Shown here: positions 18,992 to 52,734 of the stretch, piece after piece
Numbering within the stretch: position 1 is the stretch's first letter
Layout: every line of letters begins with the position of its first letter
Virus genome (UHGV): UHGV-0124967
Strand: one strand, 5' to 3'
DNA length: 52,734 bases
Source: a virus
The notes under the pieces: generated by a model
Database searches by the model: none
Told to the model about the DNA's origin: nothing
Seen by the model: only the letters and a program-made list of their open reading frames with translations
Program-made: the position numbers and the translations under genes

Positions 18992-20281
18992 TTAGAAATA
19001 AGTGTTAAAGTCAGGGACTTCGCCTTTTTTGTTTTCACTTGCTGTGTTGGCGGCTAGCGGAGTTGCTTTACCCAGGGATTTAAACATTGCCTCTAATGCT
19101 TCACCGCTTAATGCGTTAGCAACAATTTCGCCGTGAACTTTTGCTACTGCGGCGCGTTTTTCTGCTACTTCTTTATTTGCGTTTGCTGCAATTTCTTCTT
19201 TAATTGCTTTCTGGTTGGTCTGTAATTCTTCTTGGTTGGTCTGCAATTCTTTTACGCTTGCCTGTACTGGTTTTAATGCCTCTGCTACTGCATTAGCGAT
19301 ATTGGCGGCTAAGCCTTCGTTAATTTCTTTTACCAGTTCGGCGCGTTCTTCTTTTGTCAAAGGCATGGGATCGTCCTCCGATTTATTGGCCTTAATTTTT
19401 TCATTCAGGGAGAAAAGATTAGAAAGGTGTTCAGCGAACTGAGCAAACCATGATTTACTTTCCTCGTTGGTTGCAAGCTCGCCATTATTGATAATAATTT
19501 TATCAGCCTGTTTTTCGTAGTTGTATCTTTCCGCACGGTTTTCATTAGTGGCGATCGTCACCTCTCTATCAGTGAAGTCCACCACGTATACGTAATCAGC
19601 GTCAGGGAACATTTCCCGCGCGGCAGCGGTTAACTGTTTTTCAAGTGTGCGATAGCTATTTTCTTTCATTGCCACCGCCATTAACGGCTTCGCCTGGTCG
19701 GTATTAACCATTAAGCCTACGCCCTGTTCCGGCGAAGCGGCTGGCGGCTCATGCAGCAAGATAGCGTCATGGTCGATCGACATGATTTTCACTACATGGT
19801 CAGCACCCTGGGCTTTCATTTTTTCGGTGGCTGGCATACGCTGGCGATATACAGCGACGGACGACCAGATAGGATCTTTGCTTTCTCCTTTCTCCAGTGC
19901 TTCCAGTCGGGCTAATAATTCGCGGCCCTGGCTTGAATGGCTGGCGGTTTCCACATCCACCCATTTTTCCACATAAACACGGTTGCCGCGTAACTCAACG
20001 TTTCTGTTCCACGCACCACAAAAACCCGTGTTTAATCCTTCCGGGCTAAATGCTGAAACAAATTTACCGTCAACGGTAGGATGGCCCAGCGGGGCAAGCG
20101 TACCCTCCAGTGACTGGTAATTAGCGATAATTTCAGCTTCCGGGTAATATTCCCGGTTCATTACGATGTTAAAGGGTAACGTGTAGGACGGAACAACAAT
20201 ATGTTCCCGCCCGTTATACGTTTCCCGGCGTATGGTATTAGCGGTTAATTTGGTATTAACCTGAATTAATTCTTTACTCAC
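18992..20281 (-). CDS. putative prohead protease / scaffold protein
   Basis: Likely GTG start at 20281 with GGGAG 8 nt upstream (track ORF begins at TTG 20296); C-terminal half is coiled-coil scaffold-like with ELQTNQEELQTNQK repeat. Confidence 0.55.
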   Translation of the reverse strand: MSKELIQVNTKLTANTIRRETYNGREHIVVPSYTLPFNIVMNREYYPEAEIIANYQSLEGTLAPLGHPTVDGKFVSAFSPEGLNTGFCGAWNRNVELRGNRVYVEKWVDVETASHSSQGRELLARLEALEKGESKDPIWSSVAVYRQRMPATEKMKAQGADHVVKIMSIDHDAILLHEPPAASPEQGVGLMVNTDQAKPLMAVAMKENSYRTLEKQLTAAAREMFPDADYVYVVDFTDREVTIATNENRAERYNYEKQADKIIINNGELATNEESKSWFAQFAEHLSNLFSLNEKIKANKSEDDPMPLTKEERAELVKEINEGLAANIANAVAEALKPVQASVKELQTNQEELQTNQKAIKEEIAANANKEVAEKRAAVAKVHGEIVANALSGEALEAMFKSLGKATPLAANTASENKKGEVPDFNTYF

Positions 20282-40194: not shown

Positions 40195-40207
40195 GATTAA
40201 TACCTCA

Positions 40208-43717: not shown

Positions 43718-44770
43718 ATGAAGTGGTTTAAGCATGACAGCGATGCGAACCGCGATGAAAAACTTCAAAACGTTTTGTTAGATTATGGCCTGGAAGGGTA
43801 CGGGCTTTATTGGTATTGCCTAGAGCTAATAACTTATGACGTAGATCAGCACAATCTAACTTTTGACCTACGACATGACGCAAGAATAATTGCGCGAAAC
43901 GTCGGATCTACTGAAAAACGTATAGAAGAAATGATGAAATACTTCATCGAAATTGGTTTGTTTGAATGTTCTCAAGGCCACATAACTTGTTTAAAGTTAT
44001 TGAAAAGGCTGGACCAATCAATGACTTCTAAAAGCGCTTACAGGGCCGCCATAAACACAGCGAAGGAGCAATTAAAATTAGAAAAGTTAATCAATCCAAC
44101 ACAAAAAGGTCATGATAGGGTCATGACCGGGTCAGGAAAGGGTCATGAATTAGAATTAGAAGTAGAAAAAGAAAGAGAAAAAGATATATACACTTCGTGT
44201 ATTGTCGAAAATGAACAAAAAATGGTCAATCAGGATGGCGTAAACGAAGCGGCATTGCGTTGCCTTGCCTTCTACAACGACAAGGCAGGATGCAAATGTC
44301 GTGATGCTAAGCCATTCGTAGAACTACTGACAGAAACAAAAACACGTAAAGCGTATACGGAGAATGAGATCACGTTAGTAATTGAGTGGGCTTTAACCCA
44401 ATGGCGTAGCCGTGGTGGAGTACCTAAGCCTATCAACATTTGCCGGGTAACTAAATTTGATGGGTATCTGACTGATGCTGAACAATGGCGCAAACTGTCA
44501 GCCACTGTAAACGCTGCCGACGTGGTGGAAGCATTTAACAGCACGTTTGACGGCCTGTTACCACCTGCCGAACTGGATCGGGATCTTGAACGCAAGATCT
44601 ATGCGTTCACTGACTACCTGAAAGACAAAAGCATTAACGGCTTTGTCGCCTACTTCGAAACGTTCAAAAACACGGCTTCAGATTTTTACTTCGGCGATGG
44701 CTTCACCGCGACACTTGATTTCCTGCTTAAACCAAAAACGCTACGTGATACGCGCGCTGGCGTTCTTTGA
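43718..44770 (+). CDS. putative replication initiator / replisome organiser with internal origin
   Basis: 350 aa; GGAGGG RBS; iteron array lies inside the coding sequence, as in lambda O-type initiators. Confidence 0.6.
   Translation: MKWFKHDSDANRDEKLQNVLLDYGLEGYGLYWYCLELITYDVDQHNLTFDLRHDARIIARNVGSTEKRIEEMMKYFIEIGLFECSQGHITCLKLLKRLDQSMTSKSAYRAAINTAKEQLKLEKLINPTQKGHDRVMTGSGKGHELELEVEKEREKDIYTSCIVENEQKMVNQDGVNEAALRCLAFYNDKAGCKCRDAKPFVELLTETKTRKAYTENEITLVIEWALTQWRSRGGVPKPINICRVTKFDGYLTDAEQWRKLSATVNAADVVEAFNSTFDGLLPPAELDRDLERKIYAFTDYLKDKSINGFVAYFETFKNTASDFYFGDGFTATLDFLLKPKTLRDTRAGVL
44108..44200. repeat. putative origin of replication: four iterons plus AT-rich region
   Basis: GGTCATGA 44108-44115, GGGTCATGA 44118-44126, GGGTCAGGA 44129-44137, GGGTCATGA 44140-44148 (about 11-bp phasing), then an A/T-rich run. 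Confidence 0.55.
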
Positions 44771-45145: not shown

Positions 45146-45646
45146 ATGCGCAAGTTAACACACGAAGAACACATCACAGATATAGCCAAAGTTAACACTT
45201 ATGTTGAAGTATTGGGAAAAATTAAGAACCATAGAGATAAAGTCCCGTGCCGCTGCAAGATCTGTAGTCATGAGTGGTCTGCCAGGCCTTGCAACCTTAA
45301 AAGCGGGTACGGCTGTCCAAAATGCGCGAAATACGGTTTCCTTCGTCATGAGTATGGCAAACTTTACATCATGGTTGATGATCTGGAAGTGCCTACACAA
45401 ATGAAAATTGGGGTAAGTGTTCAGGAAAATAAACGAAGAAACGAGATATTAAAAAGCGCACATAAAGCAGGCGTTAGAATTCCTAATTTGCATATCGTGA
45501 AAACGTTAGAAGGGCCAACCGAAAATATACATGAACTAGAAAACACGATGCATAAGGCTTTTAGCAATTATAAAATTAACTTTCCTGTAAAATTTGATGG
45601 TAGCAATGAGTTTTTTATTACAGGCCGGAAGTATTCGACATGGTAG
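45146..45646 (+). CDS. zinc-ribbon plus T5orf172-like (GIY-YIG-like) domain protein
   Basis: 166 aa; AAGGAG RBS; CRCKICSHEW...CPKCAKYG, then KLYIMVDD...MKIGVSVQENKRRNEIL...NEFF. Confidence 0.55.
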   Translation: MRKLTHEEHITDIAKVNTYVEVLGKIKNHRDKVPCRCKICSHEWSARPCNLKSGYGCPKCAKYGFLRHEYGKLYIMVDDLEVPTQMKIGVSVQENKRRNEILKSAHKAGVRIPNLHIVKTLEGPTENIHELENTMHKAFSNYKINFPVKFDGSNEFFITGRKYSTW

Positions 45647-45715: not shown

Positions 45716-46834
45716 ATGTGTCAAAGAAAGATTAGTGATGAACAGCTAATCACTGAACATAACAACGGTCTAACGTATAAACAGATCGCCGAAAAATACG
45801 GAATGGCAAAACGCAACGTCGAACGCCTGGGCGCACGGTTGGCGAAACGCGGTTTAATATCCACGCGTCGCGCGCCGGGTTTTGGCGTCAATGGTGAGTC
45901 ATTGCTCGTCGATAAGGATGGCAATGTGATTATGCGCTGGATTAAAACAGCCCGTGATCGCGATGAAATGGAAAGGCTAATGCAATCTGCTTGTGACGCC
46001 TTCACGGAAGAAATACCCCGCGCGGAGTCCGTGCCAGTGCCGGAAATTGATTTCCAAAAAAGCCTGGCCCTTTATCCGGTATTTGATCTGCATATCGGGG
46101 CGCTTGCTCATAAAGCTGAATGCGGCGATAGCTACGACACCGGGATCGCTGAGCGCGTGCTAAATGATTTCTTCGACTACGCGGTAGGCGCTGCACCGAT
46201 GTCTGAAAAAGCTGTTTTGCTGTTAGGAGGGGATGTGCTCCACACTGACGGACTGTTACCAGTGACGCCATCAAGTAATCACGTTTTGGATTGTGATTCA
46301 CGCTACGCAAAACTTGTTTACGTGGCGATCCGGTCGGTCAGGCGTGCTGTAGGTAAGATGTTGTTGAATCATAAGGATGTAGAAATTCAGGTGTTATCAG
46401 GTAATCACGACCAGTCAGGAATGATCTGGCTACGTGCGGCGCTGAAGGCTTTTTACGAAGATGAACCGCGCGTTACTGTTGATGTGTCACCTGCCATCGT
46501 CCACCACACACAGTACGGCAAAACATTCCTTGCATATCATCACGGTCATACTATCAAAAAACCTGACAATTTGTTGTCTGCCTGCGTCTCTGACTGGCGA
46601 GAAGACTTTGGCAAGTCTGCGGCGGTTTACGCTCATTGCGGGCACTGGCATCATCAACGGCTAATTGAATCATCGTTAGGCGTTGTTGAGTATCACGGCA
46701 CGTTAGCGGGTAAAGACGCTTACTCAACTAATGGCGGCTGGCGGTCACGTCGTATGGCAGCGGTGATTATTTACAGCCAGGATTATGGTGAGATCGGGCG
46801 CTTTGTTTATTACCCTGAATATTCCATTTTGTAA
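45716..46834 (+). CDS. HTH plus calcineurin-like metallophosphoesterase domain protein
   Basis: 372 aa; N-terminal HTH; phosphoesterase motifs DLHIG, GGDVLHTDG, GNHD, HHGH, GHWHH. Confidence 0.6.
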   Translation: MCQRKISDEQLITEHNNGLTYKQIAEKYGMAKRNVERLGARLAKRGLISTRRAPGFGVNGESLLVDKDGNVIMRWIKTARDRDEMERLMQSACDAFTEEIPRAESVPVPEIDFQKSLALYPVFDLHIGALAHKAECGDSYDTGIAERVLNDFFDYAVGAAPMSEKAVLLLGGDVLHTDGLLPVTPSSNHVLDCDSRYAKLVYVAIRSVRRAVGKMLLNHKDVEIQVLSGNHDQSGMIWLRAALKAFYEDEPRVTVDVSPAIVHHTQYGKTFLAYHHGHTIKKPDNLLSACVSDWREDFGKSAAVYAHCGHWHHQRLIESSLGVVEYHGTLAGKDAYSTNGGWRSRRMAAVIIYSQDYGEIGRFVYYPEYSIL

Positions 46835-46852: not shown

Positions 46853-48274
46853 ATGGTAACTGAGCAGATAAACTCACTACTGCAGGAACGTGAAGCGTCA
46901 GTTATCGGCGGGCTGCTATTAGGCGGCCTCACTCCTAACGCGCAAGATGTTCTCGCTACGCTAGATCCTGAAGTGTTCACTATTCCGCTGTATAAGCGGG
47001 CGTTTGAAATTATCCGGGCGCAAGCCAGAAACAGGAATCTTATCGACGCGTTATTGGTTGGTGATGAGATTGGTAATGAAAACTTTGTACCGCTAATGCA
47101 AACGGCGCGATCGTGCCCTTCTGCTGCCAACCTGAAGGGATATGCACAGCTACTACGTGAAGAGCACCAGCGGCGGCAGATGTTGGAACTCATCGACGAT
47201 ATGCGCTACAAACTGGAAACTGGGACACTTGAGGTCGTCAAAGAGACGATGAAAGATTTTGATTCCCGGTATTCAAAATTAAAGGTAACAAAAGATCAGA
47301 TTATCCCGGTGCTGTTGCGCGATGCTGTCCAGGAATACACGGAAGTGCTAAGTAAACGCATGGAGTGTGGCGTGAACTCTGACAACATCAAAACAGGGAT
47401 TGACCCACTCGACGAAATGTTAGGCGGCATTAACGCTACTGATCTGGTGCTTATCGCCGGACGCCCAGGGTCTGGTAAATCGGCGTTGGCGTTGGCAATT
47501 GCCCGCGCGGCTGCTGAACGCCAATACCCTGGCGGAGAAGGTCAGCGGGTCGGCGTTTTGTTGTTCACGCTTGAAATGTCGCTCGATCAGATGACTGAAC
47601 GCGCTATCGCTGGCGCAGGGAACTTGTCAACGGATTGCTTACGTAATCCGGTAAAACTGGATGACGAAGGATGGGCGCACGTTGCCCAGGGAATGAACGC
47701 ACTTGCTGATCTCGATGTGTGGATTGTTGATGCATCACAGTTAACTGTCGAGGAAATACGCGCCACAACTGAACGAATGAAGCAGGATTATCCCAACCTG
47801 GGTATGGTAATGATTGACTACATCGGGTTAATGAAGCTGGCTAAGGCAGAACGTCACGATCTCGCTGTAGGGCAATTGTCATGGTCGTTGAAGATGATGG
47901 CGAAAGAATTGCGCGTACCAGTGTTGGCACTGGCGCAATTATCCCGCCGCGTTGAGGAACGACCAAACAAGCGCCCGAACAATTCTGATCTGCGTGATTC
48001 CGGTAATCTTGAACAGGACGCAGACCGGATCATCATGGTCTACCGCGACGGGTACTATGATGAACAGTCTGTTGCCCGCGAATATATGGAGATCATTGTT
48101 TCGAAAAACCGTCACGGGAAAACGGGGACTGTTTACCAGCGGTTTGACGACAACGGCAACATCTTACCATGCGACCAGGCCCGCGCGGCGTCAGCTTGCA
48201 TCCAGTCAATGCAACAACGTCCGTCTGCAAGCCGATTCTCACCACGAAACAACCAGAATAACGCATCTTTTTAA
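46853..48274 (+). CDS. replicative DNA helicase (DnaB family)
   Basis: 473 aa; Walker A GRPGSGKS, LFTLEMS, VMIDYIGLM, LAQLSRRVEERPNKRPNNSDLRDSGNLEQDADRIIMVYRD. Confidence 0.9.
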   Translation: MVTEQINSLLQEREASVIGGLLLGGLTPNAQDVLATLDPEVFTIPLYKRAFEIIRAQARNRNLIDALLVGDEIGNENFVPLMQTARSCPSAANLKGYAQLLREEHQRRQMLELIDDMRYKLETGTLEVVKETMKDFDSRYSKLKVTKDQIIPVLLRDAVQEYTEVLSKRMECGVNSDNIKTGIDPLDEMLGGINATDLVLIAGRPGSGKSALALAIARAAAERQYPGGEGQRVGVLLFTLEMSLDQMTERAIAGAGNLSTDCLRNPVKLDDEGWAHVAQGMNALADLDVWIVDASQLTVEEIRATTERMKQDYPNLGMVMIDYIGLMKLAKAERHDLAVGQLSWSLKMMAKELRVPVLALAQLSRRVEERPNKRPNNSDLRDSGNLEQDADRIIMVYRDGYYDEQSVAREYMEIIVSKNRHGKTGTVYQRFDDNGNILPCDQARAASACIQSMQQRPSASRFSPRNNQNNASF

Positions 48275-48352
48275 TTAACTTGAGAAACGGCTTACCGGAA
48301 AGTTTACCGCTTTCTGGTGGCTGTTTTCGCGCTTAAATCGAGGCTAGAAACA

Positions 48353-48880
48353 ATGAAAACCATTTATAAAACACAAATAGCGAAATTTTTACAGGATGCC
48401 ACTGTTGCTGGTGAAGCAACAATTATTAAATCTATTCCAGGTCCTGAAATCGAGATCGTTAATAGTTTGCGTGATATGGTTTCTGACGGCGCTATTATTC
48501 CTGTTGAAATGGGAGTGCCGCGATTATCATATTGCTTGAAGTCAGTGCGCGAAATGGCAATAAAAAAAATCATGCCTTTATTTCTGAATAGTAGCGATTA
48601 TTTTTCTGCTGAGGATGTTAAAAAAGAATTAAAACTCGAAATAAAACAGAGGAAAATTTGTCGGGTTTTAAAGATGTTAGGCAGTGAAAATTTATTAACA
48701 GTTAATAAATTTGATGGGAAATACTTTTTTAGATCAGCTCGCTTCTATGGTTGTTCGAGTCCTATCGTATTTGAATTTAACAACCGCCTGAATGAATACC
48801 GGAAAAATAACGGCCTGCTGCCGGATAAACCAGTATTTGAGATCGAAAAACTTAACGGTGAAACGGGGTTGGAATTATGA
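48353..48880 (+). CDS. hypothetical protein, 175 aa, AT-rich gene
   Basis: First ATG 48353 (track ORF starts 48317); conspicuously AT-rich compared with flanking genes. Confidence 0.5.
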   Translation: MKTIYKTQIAKFLQDATVAGEATIIKSIPGPEIEIVNSLRDMVSDGAIIPVEMGVPRLSYCLKSVREMAIKKIMPLFLNSSDYFSAEDVKKELKLEIKQRKICRVLKMLGSENLLTVNKFDGKYFFRSARFYGCSSPIVFEFNNRLNEYRKNNGLLPDKPVFEIEKLNGETGLEL

Positions 48881-49083
48881 GACTGGTAATCTTTTATTCA
48901 GTTGAAACGTTTATTGACGATACGCGCGTTTATTATCCGTGGGAAGGATACGACGCAAAGGTGTATACACCGCCACTGATGCGGAAATATAAACACGTAA
49001 AATTTAACCGGGTTTTTGTACCAATGCGTGATGCACTGCAGGCGCTGCGCGGTGAATTACGAAACACAATGCGTATTGTGTGA
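48877..49083 (+). CDS. hypothetical protein, 68 aa
   Basis: ATGA overlap with previous gene. Confidence 0.45.
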   Translation: MRLVIFYSVETFIDDTRVYYPWEGYDAKVYTPPLMRKYKHVKFNRVFVPMRDALQALRGELRNTMRIV

Positions 49084-49092
49084 GGTGGCGTT

Positions 49093-49218
49093 ATGGATAA
49101 GGAATTAGATTTAACAGTTGAAGACCTGAGCACGATTGCGGAATACATGCGCGACGATGATCCTGATCGTCCTGTCGTCGTTGATATGAAAAAACTAAAA
49201 AAACGACCATATGGCTAG
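49093..49218 (+). CDS. hypothetical acidic protein, 41 aa
   Basis: ATG 49093 with GAGGTGG RBS; below track cutoff. Confidence 0.35.
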   Translation: MDKELDLTVEDLSTIAEYMRDDDPDRPVVVDMKKLKKRPYG

Positions 49219-49287
49219 TTCAAGGCTCATTTCTTTATGGGCGATCATGTATGCGCGGGCGCAATGGAAAAATAGCAACGGTGTATT

Positions 49288-49719
49288 ATGAGGCAAATTA
49301 GATTTGAGATAGTCAACGACGCCGTGAAAGAAAATGCTATCAGGCAGATAAGGGAAATACAGCCTGATAGCAAAAGCCCGCTGATAATCACCATCCAGGA
49401 GAAAACCCGCTCGCTAAGCCAAAATAGCCTTCTATGGGCGTTGCTAACCGACATTAGTGATCAGGTTAATTGGTACGGTAAGAGGCTGTCGCCGGAAGAC
49501 TGGAAGGCGGTATTCACTGCCGGGCTTAAGAAATATGGCGTTGTCCCTAACCTGGACAAATCAGGCTTTGTTGTGCTGGGAACATCAACCAGCCGGATGA
49601 GTAAAGCGGAATTTAGCGAATTAATCGAACTGATCTACTCGTTCGGTGCTGAACATAATGTTCAATGGTCAGGTGATACGAAATTAAACGAGGAATTTAT
49701 AAAACGCTGGGGGCAATAA
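49288..49719 (+). CDS. ninB: recombination protein NinB
   Basis: 143 aa; close to lambda NinB as recalled (TIQEKTRSLSQNSLLWALL...SPEDWKAVFTAGLKK...PNLDKSGFVVLGTSTSRMSKAEFSELIEL). Confidence 0.85.
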   Translation: MRQIRFEIVNDAVKENAIRQIREIQPDSKSPLIITIQEKTRSLSQNSLLWALLTDISDQVNWYGKRLSPEDWKAVFTAGLKKYGVVPNLDKSGFVVLGTSTSRMSKAEFSELIELIYSFGAEHNVQWSGDTKLNEEFIKRWGQ

Positions 49720-50573: not shown

Positions 50574-50803
50574 TGGATAAAACCGGGACAATCCTTCTTA
50601 GTCGCCCTGCCATCTGCCGGATGCTTGGGGGAATTAGCAGGGGAACGTTTTACTTATGGCGTAAAAAATGGGAACGGAACGGAACTCCGTTCCCCGACCC
50701 GGTTGACGTACTTGGGACCGGGCGTGGCGTTATGTACCGCTATCAGGACGTAATGCAGTTCTTTGATCGGATTGGTTTAACGTCAGCCAAAGATAACACA
50801 TAA
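50573..50803 (+). CDS. AlpA-family HTH regulator / putative excisionase
   Basis: 76 aa; LGGISRGTFYLWRKKWERNGTPFPDPVDVLGTGRGVMYRYQDVMQFF pattern; convergent with integrase 3' end. Confidence 0.65.
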   Translation: MDKTGTILLSRPAICRMLGGISRGTFYLWRKKWERNGTPFPDPVDVLGTGRGVMYRYQDVMQFFDRIGLTSAKDNT

Positions 50804-51958
50804 TCAGCAAACTTATTTAGTGCCTCCTTTTGTTCATCAAGATAATCATATTTGTCGTACACCGCCAGTATTCCCCTTAATGAATGGCCTAAGATCTTTT
50901 CTGCAATATGTACCGGAACACCTATAGCTGAAAGGTGTGTCCGGCACGTCCTGCGGAGGTCGTGACAGGACCATGATTTACCGCCCATCCTTTTACGCAC
51001 GAATATTGCAGCTACTTTTATCACTGATACGTTTACTGGCCTGTTGCCGCCGTTAATCACTGGCGGGAATACATAATCATACTCATGGGAGGTTAAAACC
51101 TCCCTGAGCATTTTTATCGACAAGTCAGATAATCCCCGCCTGATTTCACTTCTTGTCTTCGCCACCGCCGCCGGAACGGTCCATACACCGTTGTCCAGAT
51201 CTAGGTGTTCCCTTCTCATTTTCTGCAATTCACCAACCCTGCACCCGGTTAGCAATAATAGCTTTAAGGCTATTTTGTTCTGCGGATAGATCTGCGAACT
51301 GTCTACCGTGCGCCAGAAGTGGCCTATCTCCTCACATGAAAGGTAACGCTCCCCCCACCGCATAATGCTCGCCAACGTCAGCTACACGGATATTGTTTAT
51401 CGCCGTGTTAGTCATTAGCCCACGCCTGATTGCGCTGTTAACGATGATTTTCATTCGCTTCAATATCAAACCAGCCGTAACCGCGTGACCCGCCGCAGTG
51501 ATCTCGCCAAATATATCCATCCACTGTTTTGTCGTTACGTCGTCAGCTATGTAGTCGCCGTACTTGTTGACTACGTGGCGCATCAATGCGCTTTTGACTT
51601 CTTTATATGCCACCAGCTTAATGACGTTCGGCAGGGATAGATAGTCTTCCACTACGTCGGATATAGATCGCTTGCCCTGCTCAAAGGCTATGGCCTGCTT
51701 TACGCACAGTGCCGGATTCTTCCCTTTCGTAAGCAACTCCCTGTATTCAGACACCGCATAGCGGGCGTCTTTCAGACTCATTTTCCCGTATTCACCGATC
51801 TTCATTCGCACTGGCTTACCGTTGAATCTGTAACGGTACTGGAAAGTAATTTTCCCTTTTGGGTTTATCCTGGCTGACAGGCCATCACGATCAGCTATCT
51901 CGCTTGGACCGTCGTATGGCTTGTTGGCGATGGCCCTTAACCTGGTATCCGTAAGCAT
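50743..51958 (-). pseudogene. tyrosine integrase disrupted by a frameshift
   Basis: Two overlapping frames (51332..51958 N-terminal, 50743..51375 C-terminal with HDLRR, LGHS, AVYDKYDY motifs). They meet at a C6 run (51351-51356); deleting one base would give continuous ...GEHYAVGERYLSCEEIGHFW.... Could be a real pseudogene or a sequencing error. Confidence 0.7.
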
Positions 51959-51972
51959 GTTGCCCCCCCATT

Positions 51973-52235
51973 TTTGGTCACGTTTTGGTACACAGTTTTT
52001 GTTGTACGGATATTAACAGTATTGTACGGAATTAGAAACGTGATGCCGGGTTTTGGTTACAACTTTATGATTTTTAAGTGATTTTATTGACGTGATTGAA
52101 CGGAGTTAAACGCCTTTAAACATAGTGCGCTGGTCCTGTCTGGAATGATTAGTGTAACGAATAATCATTTATAAAACATAATGTTATGTTGTTTTTGATT
52201 TTAGTTTTTGATATTTGGTCACTATTTGGTACACA
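51973..52235. repeat. two copies of a ~22-bp direct repeat flanking an AT-rich region; candidate integrase arm sites / att region
   Basis: TTTGGTCACGTTTTGGTACACA (51975-51996) and TTTGGTCACTATTTGGTACACA (52214-52235); each is itself a tandem of TTTGGT(C/A)AC. Confidence 0.35.
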
Positions 52236-52263
52236 AAAAGAAACGAGGCGTTAGCCTCGTTTC
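52235..52263 (-). terminator. rho-independent terminator for minus-strand gene 52307..52591
   Basis: GAAACGAGGC-GTTA-GCCTCGTTTC followed on minus strand by T5. Confidence 0.5.
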
Positions 52264-52306
52264 TCGGCGATGCTTTCAACATCACCATGCTATCACTGCC
52301 GCATCA

Positions 52307-52591
52307 TTAAGCCCATGCGCGGACGCCTGGATCTGGAACGATGAAAGGCTCAAGCTGAGAAATATCAACATCGTCACCAGTTATACGCACGTTGACGTAA
52401 TAACCTTTTTTTCCAATAAGTACAGGTGTCTCGCTTTCTGGATCGTCGAATACAAGGACAAAACCGATATCATCAATAAACACGGTTGACCAATTGGCAT
52501 CCAGCCAGCCGCTATTAATCACAATGTCGTTGTATTGCTGTTTGTCAGTAAATTGCAAGCTAACGTCTTTCATGTTAACCACCTTAAACAA
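52307..52591 (-). CDS. hypothetical protein, 94 aa (outside or at edge of prophage)
   Basis: Track ORF with AAGGTGG RBS; followed by terminator. Confidence 0.45.
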   Translation of the reverse strand: MFKVVNMKDVSLQFTDKQQYNDIVINSGWLDANWSTVFIDDIGFVLVFDDPESETPVLIGKKGYYVNVRITGDDVDISQLEPFIVPDPGVRAWA

Positions 52592-52593
52592 TT

Positions 52594-52734
52594 TCGCTTA
52601 ATTGCGCATCAGTTAATGCCTTATGCCATACTCGAAAATTTCTAACATGACCAAATAAATGACGTTGTCCTGTCGTTGTCTGACCACCGATACGAATAGT
52701 TGCGGAGCTTTGAATATAAGTCCAGGTTGTTTTT
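52594..52734 (-). CDS. C-terminal fragment of a protein with a LamG/jelly-roll-like terminus; gene starts beyond window end
   Basis: Open minus frame from window end to TAA at 52594; ends ...GQRHLFGHVRNFRVWHKALTDAQLSEIV. Confidence 0.4.

Follow-up and report, generated by a model that had tools for sequence, protein, structure and literature searches.

In lambda, the early gene order is P-ren-ninB. Some NCBI records call fragments of the small Ren protein MarR-family, and we know of no mechanism established for Ren. Exchange between temperate phages reportedly creates mosaic genomes with novel joints at gene or domain boundaries, an account said to go back to Juhala et al. in 2000 and to Hendrix and colleagues. 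A moron, in the sense of Juhala and Hendrix, is an extra phage gene that is carried by some close relatives only and has its own promoter upstream and a terminator downstream. The lambda terminator tR2 is placed after ren in PMC3640518. The group of the mEp021-like (mEpimmI) coliphages is treated in PMC11893012, which reports N-like antitermination with a nutL site for the operon that corresponds to the one studied here.

The window analysed here, a stretch of 52,734 nt (UHGV virus genome UHGV-0124967), is the genome of a mEp021-like ("mEpimmI") temperate coliphage. Its gene order is DnaB-g1-g2-g3-NinB, and lambda has ren in the slot that here runs from the phage DnaB helicase to NinB. The slot is bounded upstream by the gene of a DnaB-type replicative helicase (46853..48274, + strand), whose product matches Pfam DnaB_C (4e-76) and the DnaB N-terminal domain (9e-12) as well as phrog_19, and downstream by the gene of the recombination mediator NinB (49288..49719, + strand; Pfam NinB 3e-46, phrog_72). 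The initial annotation had described g1 and g2 as an AT-rich pair behind a hairpin that was probably acquired recently. We found that both are conserved genes of the early replication/recombination operon in mEp021-like coliphages, and that the AT-rich stretch is an exchangeable cassette of about 420 bases inside a conserved gene, not a newly inserted gene pair.

Results

The gene g1 (48353..48880, + strand) has 175 codons in an intact ORF and encodes, according to an AlphaFold2 model, a double winged-helix protein in a chimeric allele. Its GAGG ribosome-binding site (48340..48343, + strand) does not vary among the aligned relatives, and 9 nt separate it from the ATG at 48353. The GC content of g1 is 35.6% and its GC3 31.8%, compared with a GC content of 45.8% for the whole window. 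This is the second lowest value among about 90 ORFs (mean 45.0%, sd 3.8), and just 0.3% of 528-nt sliding windows match it, which bears out the claim that g1 is AT-rich. The same claim does not apply to g2, for which a GC content of 43.5% and a GC3 of 42% are within the normal ORF range. The atypical composition attributed to the pair is a property of g1, where it is concentrated in codons 2-141.

These codons (48356..48775, + strand), which encode both winged-helix domains, were delimited by composition and DNA alignments as an AT-rich allelic cassette with a GC content of 34.0% and a GC3 of 27.1%. The lowest-GC 419-nt stretch of the 52.7-kb window begins at 48362, within the cassette. Inside the one ORF of g1, GC3 steps from 27% in codons 2-141 to 50% in codons 142-175. 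GC is low along all 420 nt of the cassette and at all three codon positions, which fits a different gene pool; derivation of part of g1 from such a pool is supported by these compositional data.

Three deeply diverged alleles of the cassette were found among the relatives, namely A, A' and B, and the window carries A, the rarer, low-GC allele. At the DNA level the window cassette is unalignable with allele B and about 72% identical to A', and identity within A is 94-100%. The composition breakpoints match the positions where DNA identity to relatives drops and recovers (codon 2 and about codon 141). The flanks are near-identical, comprising the hairpin and the ribosome-binding site upstream and a 34-codon tail segment downstream. 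Four relatives share the A cassette at 99-100% identity and a fifth at 94%, and the neighbouring genes of these genomes differ by up to 23%; for the A-allele genomes L003 and L010, with a 99-100% identical cassette, the adjacent endonuclease and exonuclease-like genes differ by 12-23%. Conversely, the B-allele genomes L022, L023, L029 and L031 are 91-100% identical to the window in the repressor, initiator, endonuclease, exonuclease-like and DnaB genes, and among relatives the DnaB gene is 88-100% identical in DNA irrespective of the g1 allele. Identical cassettes on differing backbones, and the converse, point to recent recombinational exchange. On backbones that are nearly the same, A, A' and B are freely reassorted, and cassette exchange of this kind is ordinary phage mosaicism. 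The AT-rich allele lineage itself is old, because A and A' are separated by a dS of 1.4-2.0 (saturated at synonymous sites) and both remain at 32-36% GC.

All combinations of g1 and g2 alleles were seen, and a linkage scan of 10 kb on either side of g1 revealed no segment that co-varies with the g1 allele. When the scan covered 12-52 kb in 38 viral genomes, one segment (19426-20025) matched the g1 allele; it was rejected as a co-varying partner, as the match reflects the clonal kinship of four A-allele genomes and is lacking in the divergent A genome and in the A' genomes. No cognate DNA site co-varying with the g1 allele was found in these scans of 12-52 kb.

Synteny of DnaB-hairpin-g1-g2-g3-NinB extends to each of the close relatives inspected as well as to one distant relative. 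Each of the 7 phage records inspected has g1 and g2 in this slot, and the pair is found without exception in the 31 complete (>50 kb) viral contigs of close relatives, which had been gathered via an unrelated protein. A check for presence or absence in related prophages, proposed along with the idea of recent acquisition, went against that idea: among 35 matching E. coli genomes, the five prophage annotations that were opened all have g1 and g2 in this slot. Even a distant relative with no more than 55% identity in DnaB has the pair. As judged from dN/dS (0.04-0.18 for g1, about 0.1 for g2), both genes are under purifying selection.

Upstream of g1, a conserved RNA hairpin followed by TTTT was located at 48284..48327 (+ strand) by fold energy and conservation; it is likely an intrinsic terminator or a processing stem-loop. 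It has 17 pairs and one bulge, an RNA dG of -23.3 kcal/mol and a z-score of -4.1, and none of 200 shuffled sequences was equally stable. A consensus scan flagged a terminator-like site at 48292-48320. The hairpin is specific to the sense strand, because four G.U pairs exist on the + strand only; the - strand has a dG of just -10.5 (z -1.0). The stem-loop with a T-rich tail that had been noted before g1 is thus real in kind but had been placed at 48320-48345, an interval with a chance-level fold (dG -3.1, z +0.6). In 23 sequence variants of the hairpin, 98.2% of the pair cells remain paired; the changes that preserve pairing are all one-sided (G.U to A.U or G.C), and no double compensatory change occurs. 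The T-run has only 4 T; it reads UUUU in the window and in about 13 of these variants, followed by CGCG (UGUG in three), and is interrupted as UUAU in about 10. The hairpin belongs to the backbone sequence and is kept upstream of every g1 allele. A search of the region against Rfam gave no match. From its sequence features, the hairpin is probably a terminator, although the short and often interrupted T-run and the lack of double compensatory changes speak against this. The g1 start codon follows the hairpin after only 25 nt, too short a distance to hold a promoter. Two promoter-like sites matching 9 of 12 positions lie inside the cassette, but they were not counted as evidence of internal promoters, since the regional count of 11 such sites is below the shuffled expectation of 17.7.

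The AlphaFold2 model of the g1 protein (pLDDT 79) consists of a first winged helix (WH1, residues 1-62), a linker with a second winged helix (WH2, residues 63-135), a helix (residues 137-152) and a disordered tail. In four lineages the charge is distributed in the same way, with a pI of about 5 in WH1, about 10 in the linker and WH2, and about 4.5-5 in the tail (about 4.8 for the segment of residues 142-175). The recognition helix of WH1 is acidic, so that at least WH1 is more likely to contact protein than DNA, and on the model the basic linker and WH2 are likely to form a nucleic-acid-binding surface. The conserved tail-coding segment (48776..48877, + strand; residues 142-175, ...RLNEYRKNNGLLPDKPVFEIEKLNGETGLEL) was recognised by DNA and protein conservation. 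It is near-invariant at both levels across A, A' and B, with a dN/dS of 0.05-0.10 and a GC3 of 50%, and residues 159-175 have a pLDDT below 50. The tail core YRKxNGLLP..FE..KLN is retained in the distant homologue P0027.

The g1 family is very small, with 24 clusters among 5.8 billion proteins. A search of 1.84 billion cluster representatives with a family-profile HMM returned 8 matches, including only one new full-length relative, and two scans of GTDB species representatives detected no relatives. Scans of Pfam, NCBIfam and PADLOC gave no match for g1 or g2. Matches to phrog_1687 have E-values of 1e-17 for P0027, 4.9e-9 for allele B, 5.9e-5 for the window allele (A) and only 0.02 for A', and residues 5-154 of the window allele align with profile positions 3-153 of 162; by these profile scores, the wider g1 family clearly belongs to phrog_1687 and the window allele is a marginal member. 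The top structural match in BFVD was a viral protein of 185 aa (29% identity, E 1.9e-9, TM 0.59/0.56), probably the allele-B orthologue, and the structural matches of g1 are all generic winged-helix proteins.

Several named families were considered for g1 and rejected. For the MarR family, neither the window allele nor allele B matches Pfam PF01047 or PF12802, P0027 reaches 19.9 and 14.6 bits where the cut-offs are 27 and 24.6, respectively, and g1 has two winged helices per chain, not a single one with a helical dimer interface. For Lrp/AsnC, the PGAP label of allele B (WP_021524088.1), no Pfam AsnC-type match was found in A, A', B or P0027, and the model has a second winged helix in place of the RAM (AsnC_trans_reg) domain. 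A Rep_3 or RepA-type initiator was dismissed as well, as there was no Pfam match and the only repeats nearby are short two-copy ones at chance level.

The gene g2 (48877..49083, + strand) encodes a basic protein of 68 aa and is translationally coupled to g1 through an ATGA overlap. Of the 47 relatives with the gene, 44 have the 68-aa ORF intact; in one it is cut to 33 aa and in two it is slightly longer (70 and 73 aa). Genome L007 has a 62-aa g2 homologue with the motif IYTPPLIRKY after g1. No family was matched by g2 in PHROG either, and its AlphaFold2 model is of low confidence (pLDDT 64). The following gene, g3 (49093..49290, + strand), was recognised by a match to phrog_21123 and encodes a small acidic protein. 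It appears frameshifted in the window, with an A7 run at 49197-49203; four relatives, otherwise identical across a 216-nt stretch around it, have A6 and an intact 65-aa ORF. The integrase gene likewise appears frameshifted, at about 51353.

The cassette contains a perfect AT-rich palindrome of 25 bp, AAATTTATTAAC-A-GTTAATAAATTT, at 48688..48712, detected by a palindrome search. The window has just 3 perfect palindromes whose arms reach 12 or more, this one included, and 0.04 per window are expected from local-composition shuffles. Of possible cognate sites for g1, it is the sole candidate. In allele A' it is kept with one compensatory change from T:A to C:G in L005 and with one mismatch in L013 and L014; it is missing from allele B and L007. 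Another copy was sought in the window, and only one match with two mismatches was found, at 40205, which is within chance.

Discussion

In our best reading, g1 acts as a nucleic-acid-binding adaptor or regulator encoded in the early operon, and its specificity module can be swapped. The cassette (codons 2-141) has been swapped by homologous recombination between conserved flanks, formed by the hairpin, the ribosome-binding site and the first codon on one side and by the 34-codon tail on the other. The double winged-helix module would set the target specificity, and its target may be a nucleic-acid site or a partner encoded outside the 12-52 kb of backbone examined. The invariant tail would dock on a conserved partner such as g2, the phage replication or recombination proteins, or a host protein. 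The hairpin, as an intrinsic terminator or RNA-processing element, would gate the expression of g1-g2-g3-ninB, and read-through past it would come from the N-like Gp17 antitermination system of the phage. For this explanation as a whole, with conserved operon genes, an exchanged g1 cassette, a specificity module with a docking tail and a gating hairpin, we estimate a probability of about 0.6.

Two other explanations of the low GC content have to be weighed. One holds that g1 and g2 are a recently gained, moron-like foreign pair behind the helicase, with the hairpin as part of the insert, and it draws on the strongly atypical composition of g1 and on the variability of the helicase-ninB slot in lambdoid phages with 54-57% identical helicases. 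Against it, none of the close relatives examined lacks the pair and a distant one has it too, the GC content of g2 is normal, all alleles share the hairpin and the g1 tail as part of the backbone, promoter room between hairpin and g1 is lacking, and long-term purifying selection on both genes is accompanied by saturation of synonymous sites between A and A'. We consider such an insertion very improbable, and the synteny largely refutes it. A moron identity was likewise rejected, because the pair is never absent among the 31 complete close relatives, the 7 phage records and the 5 prophages, the distance from hairpin to start codon is 25 nt, the hairpin lies upstream and not downstream of the pair, and no terminator-like site is present between g2 and ninB. 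What remains of the recent acquisition first proposed is that codons 2-141 come from a foreign pool and were recently exchanged; a gain of the gene pair is not supported, as both the synteny and the GC content of g2 oppose it. The other explanation takes the low GC as a cis-acting DNA element within the coding sequence, an AT-rich unwinding or binding region with the palindrome, and not as a sign of foreign origin. A precedent is ori-lambda, which is situated inside gene O; no stretch of the genome is richer in AT than the cassette, and the palindrome is statistically unexpected and kept in A' with a compensatory change. Yet no iterons or other repeats beyond chance-level pairs were found around or inside g1, low GC extends over all 420 nt and the three codon positions, and both the palindrome and the low GC are missing from allele B and from L007, so that no such element is conserved at the locus. 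We give this explanation hardly any weight.

As to function, g1 might be Ren-like and counteract exclusion or defence; it would then be a relative of lambda Ren with a duplicated winged helix, and its allele diversity would stem from an arms race against the exclusion systems of hosts or prophages. The lambda gene order, the MarR-family (that is, winged-helix) labels of Ren fragments in some NCBI records and the absence of linkage between the g1 allele and anything in the 12-52 kb backbone, which fits an external target, agree with this idea. Weak matches to phrog_142, 'Ren-like exclusion protein', were obtained for P0027 (4.2e-4) and allele B (4.4e-3), but the window allele has none, and a profile-profile comparison of g1 with Ren by hhalign (E 0.0024, probability 12%) covers a generic helix-turn-helix stretch. 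Pairwise comparisons of g1 with Ren were not significant, PADLOC gave no match, and the low dN/dS within alleles is not that of diversifying selection. A Ren-like role is in our opinion unlikely. It is also conceivable that g1 is an accessory factor for the phage DnaB, a helicase loader or adaptor, with the tail binding DnaB and the winged helices binding DNA or the initiator. No known loader resembles g1 in sequence or fold, no g1 homologue is present in those lambdoid and P22-like phages whose helicases are the most similar (54-57% identity), the g1 allele is independent of DnaB and initiator variants, and a terminator-like hairpin stands between dnaB and g1. On the other side, no DnaC-like or lambda-P-like loader was found among the five replication-module proteins scanned, and g1 directly follows DnaB in close and distant relatives despite different initiators (Lin1244-type in the window, HTH_36-type in L007). 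Loaders of the SPP1 G39P and DciA types combine a folded domain with a conserved disordered C-terminal tail, and the architecture of g1 recalls them by analogy. We regard a loader as distinctly unlikely.

Within the preferred reading of a swappable specificity module, a stronger version can be formulated, to which we attach a low probability: g1 could be a modular specificity-plus-docking protein of a type undescribed in phages, combining an exchangeable double winged helix with an invariant disordered tail. Its target would lie outside the phage backbone or be the palindrome in A and A', and its tail would provide a link to the DnaB/NinB machinery or to a host factor. If this were true, g1 would be either a helicase-associated adaptor of a new class or an anti-exclusion factor of the Ren type whose specificity can be switched; if g1 is Ren-like, it could help to explain escape from Rex exclusion. 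The g1 family is confined to a gut-prevalent coliphage group, is kept beside the replicative helicase and is not known to have been the subject of earlier work. The natural swaps of A, A' and B on near-identical backbones are ready material for testing what g1 recognises. Moreover, what appeared to be a recently acquired gene pair is an intragenic domain swap, which calls for caution in GC-based calls of horizontal transfer.

The g1 and g2 genes correspond in position to gp08 and gp07 of mEp021 (AXN54127.1 and AXN54126.1) and to the orthologous genes of mEpimmI phages and E. coli prophages, which are annotated as hypothetical, 'MarR' or 'Lrp/AsnC'. The gp07 protein is the orthologue of the window g2, and gp08 shares with g1 the length class, the predicted tandem winged-helix fold and an identical C-terminal tail. 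However, the winged-helix part of gp08 is only about 20% identical to that of the window g1, the DNA is unalignable, and orthologues of the mEp021 type have a GC content of 43-46%, compared with 34% for the window allele; the latter was absent from all sequenced phage isolates in the collection searched. The near full-length match to phrog_1687 ('MarR family transcription regulator') indicates the same overall architecture, and the name is an annotation only. Two consecutive winged helices, as in g1, are found in the tandem winged-helix proteins, which include ESCRT-II subunits, the C-terminal domains of SelB, ScpB and plasmid initiators of the RepA/RepE type. The best full-length Foldseek matches of g1 are proteins of this kind (TM 0.3-0.6, identity 10-14%); Pfam Rep_3 and ScpB have no match in g1 and no iterons were seen, and the likeness is, on the predicted model, architectural only. 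Like g1, lambda Ren (NP_040633.1; phrog_142) is encoded after the last replication gene and before ninB, in an early operon under N antitermination, but Ren has 96 aa and presumably a single domain, whereas g1 has 175 aa, and the hairpin precedes g1 in the window whereas tR2 follows ren in lambda. The mosaic exchange of temperate phages is resembled in that identity within g1 drops sharply from >90% to unalignable and in that the g1 alleles reassort among otherwise near-identical backbones. It differs in that both joints of g1 fall within one ORF, at codon 2 and at the boundary between domain and tail, and thereby produce the intragenic step in GC3.

Genomic context of the gene pair

The window is the genome of a phage of the mEp021-like ("mEpimmI") group, the temperate, Nus-dependent, non-lambdoid coliphages described in PMC11893012. 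The 1.1 kb around the genes g1 (48353-48880) and g2 (48877-49083) matched seven phage records of this group (mEp021, mEp010, mEp013, mEp044, mEp515, mEp554 and MagusPhagus); among 5,426 complete E. coli genomes, 35 had a matching prophage. The local gene order begins with a LexA-family repressor on the minus strand, followed by a small MarR-like gene, a Lin1244-type initiator (43718-44770), a T5orf172/zinc-ribbon endonuclease (45146-45646), a phrog_704 exonuclease-like gene (45716-46834) and DnaB (46853-48274); g1, g2 and g3 (49093-49290) lie between DnaB and NinB (49288-49719), and a Xis-like gene and then the integrase come after NinB and further genes. The initial annotation assumed an integrated prophage. 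However, in integrated E. coli prophages the 'head spike fiber' genes that match the right end of the window (52134-52734) are some 50 kb away from g1, from which it follows that the window is an attP-joined, circularly permuted genome in phage form.

Base composition and allelic variation of g1

The gene g1 is a real ORF of 175 codons with a GAGG ribosome-binding site. Its GC content is 35.6%, compared with 45.8% for the window; just 0.3% of the sliding windows of equal length are so low, and g1 is the second most AT-rich among about 90 ORFs. The initial annotation had described g1 and g2 together as an AT-rich pair behind a hairpin; this is true of g1 and of the presence of a hairpin, but g2 (43.5% GC) is unremarkable among the ORFs of the window, and the hairpin lies elsewhere (see below). 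Within g1, the block 48356-48775 (codons 2-141, hereafter the cassette) has 34.0% GC and a GC3 of 27%, while the GC3 of the last 34 codons is 50%; the 419-nt window of lowest GC in all 52.7 kb starts inside this block. A second strongly AT-rich spot was seen at 1579-2505 (35% GC). It contains an ORF of 100 aa (1787-2089) with a GC3 of just 21% and a weak match to phrog_2243, a family of unassigned function, directly followed by a palindromic terminator (2103-2130), a G+C-rich perfect palindrome with flanking A/T runs. As a candidate moron-type insertion, this spot is preferable to g1-g2.

Alignment with relatives showed near-identity over the end of dnaB, the hairpin, the ribosome-binding site and the ATG, an abrupt loss of similarity at codon 2, and near-identity again from about 48776 on through g2. 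Three allele classes of the cassette were distinguished. Allele A is carried by the window, five IMG/VR contigs and three complete E. coli genome records (two of which are the same assembly); allele A' has 73% amino-acid identity to A and 32-33% GC; allele B, found in mEp021 and most relatives, has 43-46% GC and about 20% identity to A in the cassette part. All three can be aligned to one architecture and have the common tail ...RLNEYRKNNGLLPDKPVFEIEKLNGETGLEL.

In B-allele relatives such as L022, L023, L029 and L031, the cassette is unalignable to that of the window although the repressor, initiator, endonuclease, exonuclease-like gene and DnaB are 91-100% identical; in three A-allele relatives (L003, L010 and L011), the cassette is 99-100% identical while neighbouring backbone genes differ by up to 23%. 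Judged from these alignments, the g1 cassette has been exchanged recently. It is of foreign ancestry and was moved by homologous recombination; the proposal that atypical composition reflects recent acquisition thus applies to the domain-encoding cassette and not to the gene pair. An imperfect direct repeat, 75% identical over 24 nt (TACCGGAAAG.../TACCGGAAAA...), flanks the exchangeable cassette, with one copy in the 5' arm of the hairpin (48293-48316) and the other in the conserved tail-coding stretch (48797-48820). The pair is also present in the B-allele relative L004, and it may be due to chance.

Conservation of the gene pair

Both g1 and g2 were present in the slot in every relative inspected, contrary to a recently inserted pair. 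Since one set of relative loci had been retrieved through g1 itself, where its presence is by construction, contigs were also collected by way of an unrelated 219-aa protein; the 31 complete close relatives (>50 kb) that this yielded were all on the g1 list too. The only new full-length g1 homologue among 1.84 billion cluster representatives was P0027 (locus L007), from a phage whose DnaB and NinB are 55% and 67% identical to those of the window, and which has the order DnaB, g1 homologue, 62-aa g2 homologue (with an IYTPPLIRKY motif), 63-aa gene, NinB. Purifying selection acts on g1 within and between alleles (dN/dS 0.04-0.18). Between A and A', synonymous sites are saturated (dS 1.4-2.0) while both remain AT-rich, which argues that the low-GC lineage is old. 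The g2 gene has a dN/dS of about 0.1; of the 47 relatives in which it was found, 44 have it as an intact 68-aa ORF, one has it truncated and two have it slightly longer. It has a central allelic block at 48919-48965 (about codons 15-29), DDTRVYYPWEGYDAK vs DESHFKFTCDPCGTM, the second form with a CxxC motif; these forms assort independently of the g1 alleles, and every combination of the g1 alleles and the two central g2 alleles occurs.

The A-run of g3 at 49197-49203 is A7 in the window and A6 in four relatives otherwise identical over 216 nt. The extra A shifts the frame, giving 41 aa instead of 65 aa; it reflects either a genuine mutation that inactivates g3 or a sequencing error in the homopolymer. 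A second frameshift of the window, in addition to that in g3, splits the integrase (50743-51958, minus strand) into two overlapping ORFs near 51353; residues 1-202 and 202-404 of the mEp021 integrase matched different frames by tblastn, and in relatives 99.7-99.8% identical in DNA the gene is intact, with 1-2 gaps relative to the window. The slot of the GIY-YIG-like homing endonuclease gene (45146-45646) is truly variable: the gene is missing or replaced in many relatives, of which some have zinc-ribbon proteins of other lengths and L005 a KilAC antirepressor, and it has no alignment whatever in about 65% of the B-allele genomes.

Predicted structure of the g1 protein

The AlphaFold2 model of g1 (pLDDT 79, pTM 0.66) predicts a winged helix WH1 (residues 1-62), two linker helices and a second winged helix WH2 (63-135), a helix (137-152) and a disordered C-terminus. 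One charge pattern is common to all four lineages (A, A', B and P0027): an acidic WH1 (pI about 4.5-6.7), a basic linker plus WH2 (pI about 10) and an acidic tail, residues 142-175 (pI 4.4-5.2). The best BFVD match to the model is a 185-aa viral protein of 29% identity, probably the allele-B orthologue. Among protein families, g1 matched phrog_1687 ('MarR family transcription regulator') and no other: P0027 (1e-17) and B (4.9e-9) hit it clearly and A marginally (5.9e-5), and the match of A' lacks significance. Because no Pfam MarR or AsnC model exceeded the threshold for the g1 family and the predicted architecture differs, the MarR and Lrp/AsnC database labels are unsupported. The family is tiny: a set of 5.8 billion proteins contains 24 clusters of it, which come from E. 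coli wherever a source is named; no relative was found in 185,579 species-representative genomes.

The hairpin upstream of g1

A strong stem-loop is present at 48284-48327 (17 pairs, dG -23.3 kcal/mol, z -4.1, followed by TTTT), not at 48320-48345 as initially annotated, where no structure beyond chance was detected. It folds well only as sense-strand RNA, because four pairs are G.U. The hairpin is a conserved feature ahead of all alleles; the distant L007 alone lacks it and has a spacer of 22 nt. Among 23 variants, 98% of the pair cells are still paired and seven are unpaired; the pairing-preserving changes are one-sided, and as no double compensatory change occurs among them, covariation support is weak. 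The T-run is short, with an interruption in about 10 of the 23 variants, and the region has no Rfam match. Given that N-like (Gp17) antitermination with a nutL site governs the operon (PMC11893012), the hairpin is most economically read as a putative moderate intrinsic terminator or RNA-processing stem gating the distal g1-g2-g3-ninB genes.

Search for a target co-varying with the g1 allele

Were the variable part of g1 to determine DNA specificity for a cognate site in the phage, some other segment would be expected to co-vary with the allele. No such segment was found within 10 kb, and over 12,000-52,700 of the window in 38 viral genomes the sole allele-associated segment was 19426-20025, in a phrog_760 head-region gene (ORF 18992-20161, minus strand), which is just 10-14% diverged. 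Its identity to the window is 99% or more in four A-allele genomes, 91% in the fifth and 84-90% in every B and A' genome. Neither the divergent A genome nor the A' genomes share it, and we therefore read the association as clonal relatedness and not as functional linkage. The only candidate site for g1 is self-contained within the cassette: a perfect 25-bp, AT-only palindrome at 48688-48712, AAATTTATTAAC-A-GTTAATAAATTT, in the WH2 coding region (peptide ENLLTVNKF). Three perfect palindromes with arms of at least 12 bp exist in the window, against an expectation of 0.04, and this is one of them; it is kept in A' with one compensatory change but absent from B and L007.

Possible role of g1

The evolutionary and structural parts of our reading are well supported: the anomaly is real and its explanation ordinary, namely that phage mosaicism has acted on a domain-encoding cassette within a tandem winged-helix gene that is conserved and uncharacterised. 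As to the biochemical role of g1, we propose, with a probability of perhaps 40-50%, an adaptor or regulator that is made from the early operon, binds nucleic acid and carries a swappable specificity module. The conserved tail would have a docking function, and g1, which is translationally coupled to g2, would be expressed by read-through of the conserved terminator-like hairpin.

Two alternatives are live. The g1 protein, encoded directly behind DnaB, might be a loader or adaptor for this helicase. Outside the group, the most similar helicases (54-57% identity) are those of P22-like and lambdoid phages, in which the helicase-ninB interval holds unrelated small ORFs; g1 is thus not a general partner of this helicase clade, which makes the loader or adaptor role less likely. 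Alternatively, g1 could be a Ren-like anti-exclusion protein, as suggested by weak phrog_142 matches from g1 relatives; yet the allele of the window has no such match, and profile-profile comparison with the Ren family alignment gave a probability of only 12%. Homology between g1 and Ren is unproven, and their relation is positional and at most at the level of the fold: lambda ren occupies the same slot as g1, in the order P-ren-ninB.
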